Of a stretch of 64,000 bases of DNA, positions 23,401 through 26,400 are shown in pieces. The position numbers were made by a program, and so were the translations under genes. The stretch is taken from NCBI RefSeq assembly GCF_044704955.1, contig NC_092002.1:11842001-11906000 (forward strand), in the 5' to 3' direction. The notes under the pieces were generated by a model. It was given only the letters and a program-made list of their open reading frames with translations. It was not told the DNA's origin and ran no database searches. The stretch comes from Pristiophorus japonicus (lineage: Eukaryota). Each line of letters starts with the position of its first letter. Position 1 is the stretch's first letter.

Positions 23401-26400
23401 ATGTACATGTCCGAGGTGATCCAGGCCTACGAGACCCTTCACGGTGAGGACATTGAAAGAAAGCAACGCGTGCATTTGTATAGCGCCTTTCGTGAGCTTA
23501 GGGCGTCCCAAACCGCTTCACGGCCAATGAAGTACTTTTGAAGCGTAGTTACTGCTGTAATGACGGAAACACGGCAGACGTCTTGCGCACAGCAAGCTCC
23601 CACAAACAGCAATGTGATAACGACGAGATAATCTGTTTTAGTGATAGTTGAGGGATAAATATTGGCCCCAGGACACCGGGGAAAACTCCCCTGCTCCTCT
23701 TCGAAATAGTGCCGTGGGACCTTTTGCGTCCACCCGAGAGAGCAGACGGGGCCTCGGTTTAAAAGGCCCCTTCCTAAAGACAGCACCTCCGACAATGCAG
23801 CGCTCCCTCAGCCTGCATTATGGGACTTGACCCCATGACCTTCTGGCTCCGAGGTGAGTGTGCTACCCACTGAGCCACAACTGACGGAGTTCGAAGTGCT
23901 CAACTTCCTTGTGTTTATTGGAATTCAGCAAGAACCCAGGCTTTAAAATGATGGAATTTCTATTGAAAATCGTCAGTGTGTGTTAATTTTGCTCGAGTGT
24001 CTGGTGTTGTGGCACTTCTCCCTGTATTTGCTCCAGCTCGTGAATCACTAGTTCAGGAATTTTTTTTTTTTTTTTAATAAATTCGTAGCCAATCGTTCCA
24101 ATTCTTTGTCAAATCACAAACGCCAGAGGTCACCTTGCACATGCCAAGGATCACTCTGCGCCAATGCTCTTAGCCAAAAGGCCTAGAGCCACTGCACCGT
24201 TCCTGGAAGTACTGCAATACCAGATTCGTGCCATGGAGGTGGATGGGTCAGGTCCCCCACACACCTCCGTGGAGGTGGATGGGTCAAGCCACCCCACCCA
24301 CCTCCTGTTTCCAAAAAAGCAAGCATATACCTTCCTGACCAGGGAGAAACCACCCGGAGGTCATGGTGGCTGGTCAGGTCAGTTATGCATGATCTTAGCC
24401 AAAAGGCCGAAATTTTGCTCCTCGACCGCCTGCCCTCGGCTGTGAGGTGGTGACTTCATCACCTCCATCTGATTGGCAGCCTCTTGGATTCACACACCTC
24501 CAAGATGAACATAAGCCGTCACAGAAAGCTTGTCTGGTGAGCTGCCTCCTCCTGGTTGTGAGCACGGTAGCACAGTGGTTATGTCAAACGAGCCAAAGGT
24601 GGGCAGCGGAAACGCTACAAGGACACCCTCAAAGCCTCCCTGATAAAGTGCAACATCCCCACTGACCCCTGGGAGTTCCTGGCCAAAGACCAGTCCGCCC
24701 TAAGTGGAGGAAGTGCATCTGGGAGGGCGCTGAGCACCTCGAGTCTCGTCGCCGAGAGCATGCAGAAATCAAGCGCAGGCAGCGGAAGGAGCGTGCGGCA
24801 AACCTGTCCCACCCTCCCTTTCCCTCAACCACTGTCTGTCCCACCTGTGACAGAGACTGTGTGGTTCCCGTATTGGACTGTTCAGCCACCTGAGAACTCG
24901 TGTTAAGAGTGGAAGCAAGTCTTCCTCGATTCCGAGGGACTGCCTATGATGATGATGAGTTTATCTCACTGGACCAGTAATCCAGAGGCCTGGGCTAATG
25001 ATCCGGAGACCCGGGTTCAAATCCCACCACGGCAACCGGAGAATTTAAATTCAGTTAATTAAATAAATCTAGAGTTAAAAAGCGAGTGTCGGTAATGGTG
25101 GTGATCACCATGAAACTAGTGTCGTAAAATCCCATCTGGTTCAGTAATGTCCTTTTCGGGAAGGAAATCTGCTGCCCTTACCCGGTCTGGCCGATTGTGT
25201 GACTCTAGACCCACAGCAATGTGGTTGACTCTTAACTGCTCTCTCAAATGGCCCAGCGAGACACTTATTCAAGAAGGCGGCTCACCACCACCTTCTGGAG
25301 GGCAATTCGGGATGGGTAATAAATGCCGGACATGTCCACATCCCGTGAATGAATTTAAAGAGACAAAATCTGCTTGCGGTTTCCTTTGGTCCTCGAGAAT
25401 TTACTCTGCTTATTTTAGTATTTTCTGCGAATTTGGACGCAACTGCCTCTATCCCTGCATCCCAATCATTGACACACACGGTGAATAGAGGCAGTTCCAG
25501 AATAGAACCCTGTGGGACGCCACTACCCACTTCCGACCACTCGCAAACTCCCCTTCATCCCGCACTCCGTTTCCTCCCTTTCCGCCCAGTTTCCAATCCA
25601 GTCGGCCAATGTCCGACAGGCAAGGAAATCTGCCGTGCTGAACCGGTCTGGCCGATTACCACCACCTTCTCAAGGGCCAATAGGGACGGGCAATAAATGC
25701 TGGCCTTGCCAGCGAATTAAATTTAAAAAAAAAAAAAAATGCTGGCCGTCTCCTCAGCCTGAGCGACCGTCGTGTTATTCGCGTCTTGTGATTAATTTTT
25801 TTTGTTGGTTGCAGCGAATCTGCCGCCGACGCTGGCCAAGTCGCAGGTCAGCAGCGTGCGCAAGAACCTGAAGCTGCATCTGCTGAGCGTGCTGAAGCAC
25901 CCGTCCTCCTTTGAGTTCCACGCCCAGATCACCACGCTGCTCCTGGACCTCGGCACGCAGCAGCAGGAGATCGCTCGCAACATGCCCAGCCTGAAGGACG
26001 TACGGAAGCGACACCGTGAGGAGGTGGAGCAGGGCACGAAGAAAATCAAAATCGGTAACATAGAAACACAAAATAGGAGCAGTAGTCGGCCATTCGGCCC
26101 CTCGAGCCTGCAGCGCCATTCAATATGATCATGGCTGATCCTCTATCTCAACACCATATTCCCGCTTTCTCCCCATACCCCTTGATGCCTTTTGTGTCTA
26201 GAAATCTATCTCTCTCCCTCTTCAGTGACTTGGCCTCCACAGCCTTCTGTGGTCGAGAATTCCACAGGTTCACCACCCTCTGAGTGAAAACATTTCTCCT
26301 CATCTCGGTCCTAAATTTCCTACCCCGTATCCTGAGACTGTGACCCCTTGTTCTAGACTTCCCAGCCAGGGGAAAACATCCTTCCCACATCCAGTCTGTC

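Follow-up and report, generated by a model that had tools for sequence, protein, structure and literature searches.

What is the U2-like sequence that lies antisense within the symplekin gene of Pristiophorus japonicus, which enzyme put it there, and from what promoter might its RNA have been made? These questions were raised by a preliminary description of a 64,000-nt stretch of DNA (contig NC_092002.1, positions 11,842,001 to 11,906,000; hereafter the window), which proposed a candidate U2-derived SINE on the - strand. Our analysis identifies window positions 24058-24416 (-) as one copy of a dispersed, poly(A)-tailed family of U2/U1/U2 chimeras that is flanked by target-site duplications (TSDs). 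The element is quite probably a copy from a young non-coding retroposon family whose insertion is likely due to the LINE Keno and whose RNA is likely made from U2 promoters that source copies have captured.

All of the coordinates given in the preliminary description hold when rechecked against the window sequence. Positions 24410-24390 match nt 9-29 of the genome's own U2 at 21 of 21 positions, the Sm-like GCTTTTTTGG lies at 24320-24311, the U2 3' block at 24223-24193 matches the genome's own U2 at 29 of 31 positions, and the second U2 5' fragment (stem I) and the A16 run are found at 24183-24168 and 24075-24060, respectively. A 6-nt duplication is present on both flanks (24416-24411 and 24063-24058) and merges with the A tail, and the element is antisense within SYMPK because the downstream host exon encodes symplekin on the + strand. 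The U2 blocks listed previously were correctly drawn, but U2 stem III, which is present and duplicated, had been overlooked, as had a U1 component, a parent family and the partner LINE; what had been read as a remodelled middle of U2 is corrected here to a U1-derived segment, by alignment to genomic U1 via older subfamilies. The Infernal-type check that had been proposed matched the Rfam U2 model over its whole length (24415-24187, E 1.6e-7) with 45.5 bits, against a cut-off of 46, and nothing in the Rfam scan of the window reaches the gathering score; the Prion_pknot, pRNA and snoRNA matches, which are below cut-off and track the duplicated hairpin, were set aside. A search for an empty paralogous site for the window copy returned none, the flank being single-copy in the genome. 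The parts of the locus are as follows.

23273-23443, + strand: upstream symplekin exon (read from the sequence, boundaries by eye)
24058-24063, - strand: 3' TSD copy, overlapping the A tail
24060-24075, - strand: A16 tail (read from the sequence)
24076-24165, - strand: tail, partly common to the parent family, with no similarity to the Keno 3' end
24166-24189, - strand: second U2 stem I, which covers U2 nt 7-29 and comes from the parent family
24194-24231, - strand: U2 stem-loop IV with conserved loop (U2 model and alignment)
24235-24268, - strand: second stem III copy, missing from subfamily C
24271-24305, - strand: U2 stem III, strengthened, a predicted hairpin of 13 pairs
24311-24320, - strand: Sm-site-like U6 run, without the A that precedes the run in U2
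24329-24383, - strand: remodelled segment derived from U1 nt 3-52, with nt 28-47 present a second time
24390-24410, - strand: U2 head (nt 9-29, stem I), lacking in this copy the initial 8 nt of the complete element
24411-24416, - strand: 5' TSD copy, 6 nt (site AGC/A, resembling the preferred junction of the family)
25815-26054, + strand: downstream symplekin exon (E 7e-33 to human symplekin)

At 25696-25747 on the + strand, some 70 nt short of the following splice acceptor, two copies of a 10-nt word enclose an A15 run and a 12-nt stub that is similar to the 3' end of the family. This is possibly a second, extremely truncated insertion in the same intron, and its host-repeat site has also been used by family copies in L013, L063, L154 and L305.

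A DNA search of the 5.9-Gb genome with the element returned 1,764 candidates, and the 40 that were scored have 97-99% identity, the window itself aside. Exact matches to a 22-nt tail motif number 5,072 and those to the 32-nt full-length head 514, with no occurrences of either reversed control. In 90 consecutive copies from one chromosome, a strict finder detected TSDs of 6-27 nt in 41, and 42 start within the first 20 nt of the element, which is 308-345 nt long, non-coding and poly(A)-tailed. These genome counts, the TSD sample and the common junctions bear out the proposal of a multi-copy, TSD-flanked, poly(A)-tailed family with a U2 head, and a one-off chimeric pseudogene is ruled out by the dispersed multi-copy matches and the 5,072 tail motifs. 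The window copy belongs to subfamily A. Subfamily D, with which it is identical at 303 of 323 positions (94%), has 173 exact tail motifs in the genome; its core divergence is 0.0% (29 copies) and its median A run 20, compared with 1.6-2.5% and 10 in older forms (B and C pooled, and A represented by 6 copies). This makes D the youngest subfamily, and the family is possibly active today.

The first 29 nt of the full-length element are identical to nt 1-29 of the genome's own U2 genes (29/29). After them come, in order, U1 nt 3-52, an altered Sm site, stem III, stem-loop IV, another U2 stem I and the tail; most subfamilies have stem III twice. With genomic U1 genes as the reference, the identity over U1 nt 3-52 (U1 stem-loop I) is 88-90% in C2, 84% in B and C, and 77% in the intermediate AB, and the end of U1 that pairs with the splice site carries one change in all of the U1-containing subfamilies aligned. 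BLAST of the window copy alone gave no significant U1 match, the segment being eroded in subfamily A, which is tied to the U1 series through alignment with the older subfamilies. The U1-derived segment occupies the place of the U2 branch-point recognition sequence, stem II and the Keno target site. A parent family that is devoid of the U1 part (384 exact motif matches in the genome) consists of U2 with a short deletion, a second stem I and a shorter tail; it keeps the branch-point recognition sequence, which is absent from A-D, and in this respect the element departs from a functional U2 snRNA variant. As judged from sequence comparison, the ancestry is graded and contained in this genome, leading from the U2 gene through the parent family to the U2/U1 mosaic. 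The window copy is predicted to fold much better than its shuffles (z -4.5), and covariation among 10 sequences was not significant (five double-change pairs, with 98 of 500 shuffles scoring as high).

A connection to a LINE emerges from the 3' junctions. In 32 copies the A tail of the SINE is followed exactly by U2 nt 38/39 (control 0), most of these insertions lying inside parent-family copies. A-tail/U2 junctions number 92 genome-wide, and the 65 that were classified comprise 37 from the SINE, 7 from the parent family and 21 from a Keno-like LINE. This LINE is intact in the same U2 arrays, with an ORF1 of 569 aa that contains a CCHC motif and a separate ORF2 of 1,145 aa with APE and RT domains (nearest to L1 ORF2p among solved structures), and its own 3' junction is at U2 nt 38/39; its identification as Keno rests on domain content and target site. 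Keno as described in PMC4494074 and PMC4640811 resembles the SINE in its 3' junction at U2 nt 38/39, its U2-like head at +1, its A tail and its variable TSDs, and differs in that only a 29-nt U2 head is common to the two. At word size 7 the SINE tail has no similarity to the Keno 3' end, and the classical SINE pattern of a 3' tail taken from the partner LINE is thus not seen relative to Keno. Because the likeness is limited to the U2 head, both a flank or 3' UTR of Keno and a SIDE-like internal deletion derivative of it are ruled out.

The U2 arrays also contain copies that could serve as sources. In at least 18 U2 units the upstream region is unchanged and subfamily D lies at +1, where its head takes the place of U2 nt 1-37; each of these units consists of the upstream region of U2, the SINE (starting at +1), the A tract, U2 nt 38-191 and the 3' flank. 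Three such units are consecutive in C19 and are followed by full-length Keno units placed likewise, the U2-like head of Keno lying at +1 as does that of D; 15 further units are found in C19, C9 and three unplaced contigs. The unplaced contigs, which hold 12 of the 18, may duplicate the C19 array. Over the 36 kb of the C19 array examined, there is one whole intact unit, with three carrying the SINE and at least three carrying Keno. These copies at +1 give a concrete basis to the snRNA-type Pol II transcription suggested by the preliminary description, which stays putative. Judged against the PSE consensus, the C9 upstream region has a PSE-like match (11/21) at the U1 offset, and the upstream region of the main U2 array has no recognisable PSE.

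Among 30 dispersed D copies, two match haplotype 1 of the array and one matches haplotype 2, each exactly over its length; most of the others, including the commonest haplotypes, are 1-3 changes from the promoter-linked units inspected, and the U2 remainder is absent from all 30. This suggests a spread of D from the array to dispersed sites. The source of the window copy is in turn inferred by analogy with D, as no promoter-linked copy of its own subfamily was found.

Together, these results suggest a cycle. At the observed nt 38 insertions, the Keno endonuclease would nick the U2 gene and source copies would enter; the 29-nt U2 head would then let a new copy recombine in register with the 5' end of the gene, which is observed to be replaced by the identical head. 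Pol II of the snRNA type would start at +1 and read through the element and its A tract into the remaining U2 sequence. Priming by Keno ORF2 would take place in the internal A tract, and daughters would for that reason be devoid of the U2 remainder. Dispersal with TSDs is observed, and most daughters would land, promoter-less, at relaxed sites, of which the window copy would be one. Source units would come and go with array turnover, which would yield the succession parent family, C, B, A and D. Replacement of U2 nt 30-90 by U1 removed both the Keno target and the branch-point sequence, and loss of the target would shield the element from hits by its own partner, a putative gain. Several results count against the cycle: no promoter-linked copy of A, B or C was found, no PSE is recognisable upstream of the main array, the commonest dispersed D haplotypes depart from the array units inspected, the SINE tail and the Keno 3' end have no sequence in common, and covariation was not significant. 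We lean, with some reserve, towards reading the element as a promoter-less SINE that renews its own master genes, a U2-specific LINE bringing copies to +1 and each capture starting a new burst. We favour to a similar, modest degree the view that a U2 mimic became a U2/U1 mosaic in which the splicing-active and Keno-target parts are gone and an snRNP-like scaffold is kept.

The same family and the same LINE could also operate with different sources, namely dispersed copies that use host or neighbouring promoters, the array copies being dead ends amplified by homogenisation, or, as a variant, with a free-standing variant snRNA gene that is missing from the assembly. Promoter-linked copies of A, B or C were found in none of 9 candidates and at none of the 65 classified junctions. 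SINE-plus-parent composites outside the U2 arrays have moved as units, some of them 5'-truncated within the SINE and enclosed in their entirety by the TSD (L091, L112), which means that transcription has occurred outside the arrays or from units since lost. Flanking promoters were also argued for crocodilian SINEU-2 (Kojima 2015, PMC4494074). Against such sources, all 30 full-length heads inspected start at U2 +1 between unrelated flanks with no common 5' extension, D is both the only subfamily found at +1 of U2 units and the youngest, and the haplotypes of the three array-matching dispersed copies are otherwise private to D-bearing U2 units. We consider these two versions, taken jointly, unlikely, and retain capture of U2 promoters as the preferred reading.

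It is less likely still that some other L1/Tx1-type LINE, or Utopia, mobilises the element and that the Keno site is used only sometimes. Such an enzyme would be consistent with the majority of copies lying outside U2 sequence, with a weak target logo and with poly(A)-dependent priming, a generic trait of L1-group enzymes. Utopia is given the same 3' junction as Keno, at U2 nt 39 (PMC4640811). In favour of Keno, the SINE junctions resemble the U2 site in having a pyrimidine at -1 in 29 of 35 cases (background 47%) and T at +2 in 20 of 35; the A at +1 of the logo is skewed by the A tail. None of the 65 classified nt-38 junctions belongs to an element besides Keno-like, SINE and parent copies, and Keno itself has relaxed specificity here, as 2,531 candidate 3' ends were found in the genome. 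Its off-target sites overlap with those of the SINE. Among Keno copies taken from the best matches to one fragment, 18 off-target 3' flanks include one that coincides, at offset 0, with the flank of a SINE from a different locus, and another that falls in a hot spot of SINE insertion; of 20 Keno loci, 4 lie immediately next to a SINE or parent copy. Tandem TSDs are common to both elements. A target preference shared by the SINE and a Tx1-type LINE is thus evident in both the nt-38 junctions and the off-target overlap, and Keno is kept as the likely partner.

An internal promoter of the Pol III type, by which any copy could be a source, is very improbable. Two A-box-like words picked out by eye, one in the head and one in the tail, and the existence of many small subfamilies point towards it, but every subfamily contains a T4 run (nt 15-18) and a run of T5-T6 around nt 100, and a B-box was not seen by eye. 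Independent chimeric snRNA pseudogenes, arising by template switching with no self-propagating family, are practically discounted: the perfect U1 fragment (about nt 13-38) that directly precedes one full-length D copy (L028:370-400) reflects a recent template switch, comparable to the 5' extensions of SINEU-2, but the derived junctions, tail and diagnostic changes common to thousands of copies across subfamilies, at 97-100% identity, refute this origin for the family.

The closest described elements in composition are SINEU-1, -2 and -3, which have been reported only from crocodilians and target Mariner-N4 via Tx1-Mar, and whose transcription was left open (Kojima 2015, PMC4494074). They and the present family are alike as short, poly(A)-tailed U1/U2 chimeras that contain oligo-T, insert in tandem at a single TSD, have a Tx1-type partner and have repeatedly gained snRNA pieces at the 5' end, and SINEU-3 likewise keeps about 32 nt of the U2 head and has lost the next 50 (PMC4494074). 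The features of the SINEU class are all present here (U1/U2-derived head, <500 bp, non-coding, poly(A), TSD, a transposing unit and a Tx1-type target preference); the differences are the target at U2 nt 38, Keno as the partner and the source-like copies at +1 of U2 genes. The preliminary description had proposed an independently evolved U2-derived SINE; the family is confirmed, and its origin is apparently separate from that of crocodilian SINEU, as judged from the series of intermediates within this genome and from SINEU as described rather than aligned.

For life in a host RNA array, the nearest parallel is given by the Drosophila R2 SIDE and R2/R1 hybrid SIDE (PMC3414825), which are also non-autonomous, occupy a host RNA gene array at the site of their partner and rely on host transcription. 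They combine LINE ends with a ribozyme and lie in Pol I rDNA, whereas the present element is made of snRNA, has >5,000 dispersed copies and, because it starts at +1, needs no ribozyme. U2 and U1 retropseudogenes share snRNA sequence, TSDs and an A tail with it but are independent copies of gene RNAs, in contrast to a rearranged unit with subfamilies and its own tail. In the open-access literature searched (including PMC5786205 and PMC7245038), such a family appears only in crocodilians and none in cartilaginous fish, and no SINE is tied to Keno. The family itself may already be catalogued; the promoter-capture arrangement was not found in that literature. The genome holds all the parts of a testable cycle: an intact partner LINE, identical source-like copies that follow U2 upstream regions, daughters with zero divergence and an ancestry in graded steps. 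It would represent a second, apparently separate birth of an snRNA-headed SINE, and a route by which a target-specific LINE brings a parasite in and out of an array of essential genes; SINE and Keno insertions are a load on the U2 arrays. If true, the proposed cycle gives a direct answer on how snRNA-headed SINEs are transcribed, in a lineage with no reported ones.

The 5' ends of truncated copies are strongly clustered. Starts 2-17 nt after the Sm U run account for 35 of 48 truncated copies, far above uniform expectation, compared with two in the second stem III. Such hot-spot starts occur in 35 of 90 A-C copies, compared with 2 of 30 in the parent family and 5 of 30 in D. Since the parent family and D have canonical Sm sites and show few of these starts, the Sm ring is not a simple cause, and a block by it was not accepted; cleavage of an unprotected linker and the stronger hairpin are candidate causes.

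Several further features of the arrays and insertion sites were observed. In L268 and the C19 array, the head of Keno corresponds to U2 nt 1-44, altered at two positions of the target site, and this U2-like head itself receives tandem Keno insertions. Each 18-21 kb U2 unit of the C9 array (L081-L084, L231, L232) has a 3' fragment of Keno and, after it, another U2 (or parent-family) copy that runs from nt 38 onward. In L389-L418, a Keno-like fragment ends about 500 bp upstream of the gene in most U1 units, and in L172:4500-7500 a Keno copy is interrupted by retrovirus-like pol and env reading frames. L035 and the C1003 array (L157-L161) comprise about 45 near-identical 770-bp U2 units with no recognisable PSE upstream, from which the C9 U2 units and the U1 genes differ in having a PSE-like word. 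Finally, one repeat has been struck at the same position by many SINE copies (3' flanks L023, L054, L065, L177, L179 and L317), and these insertions are often in tandem, with up to six in L028.
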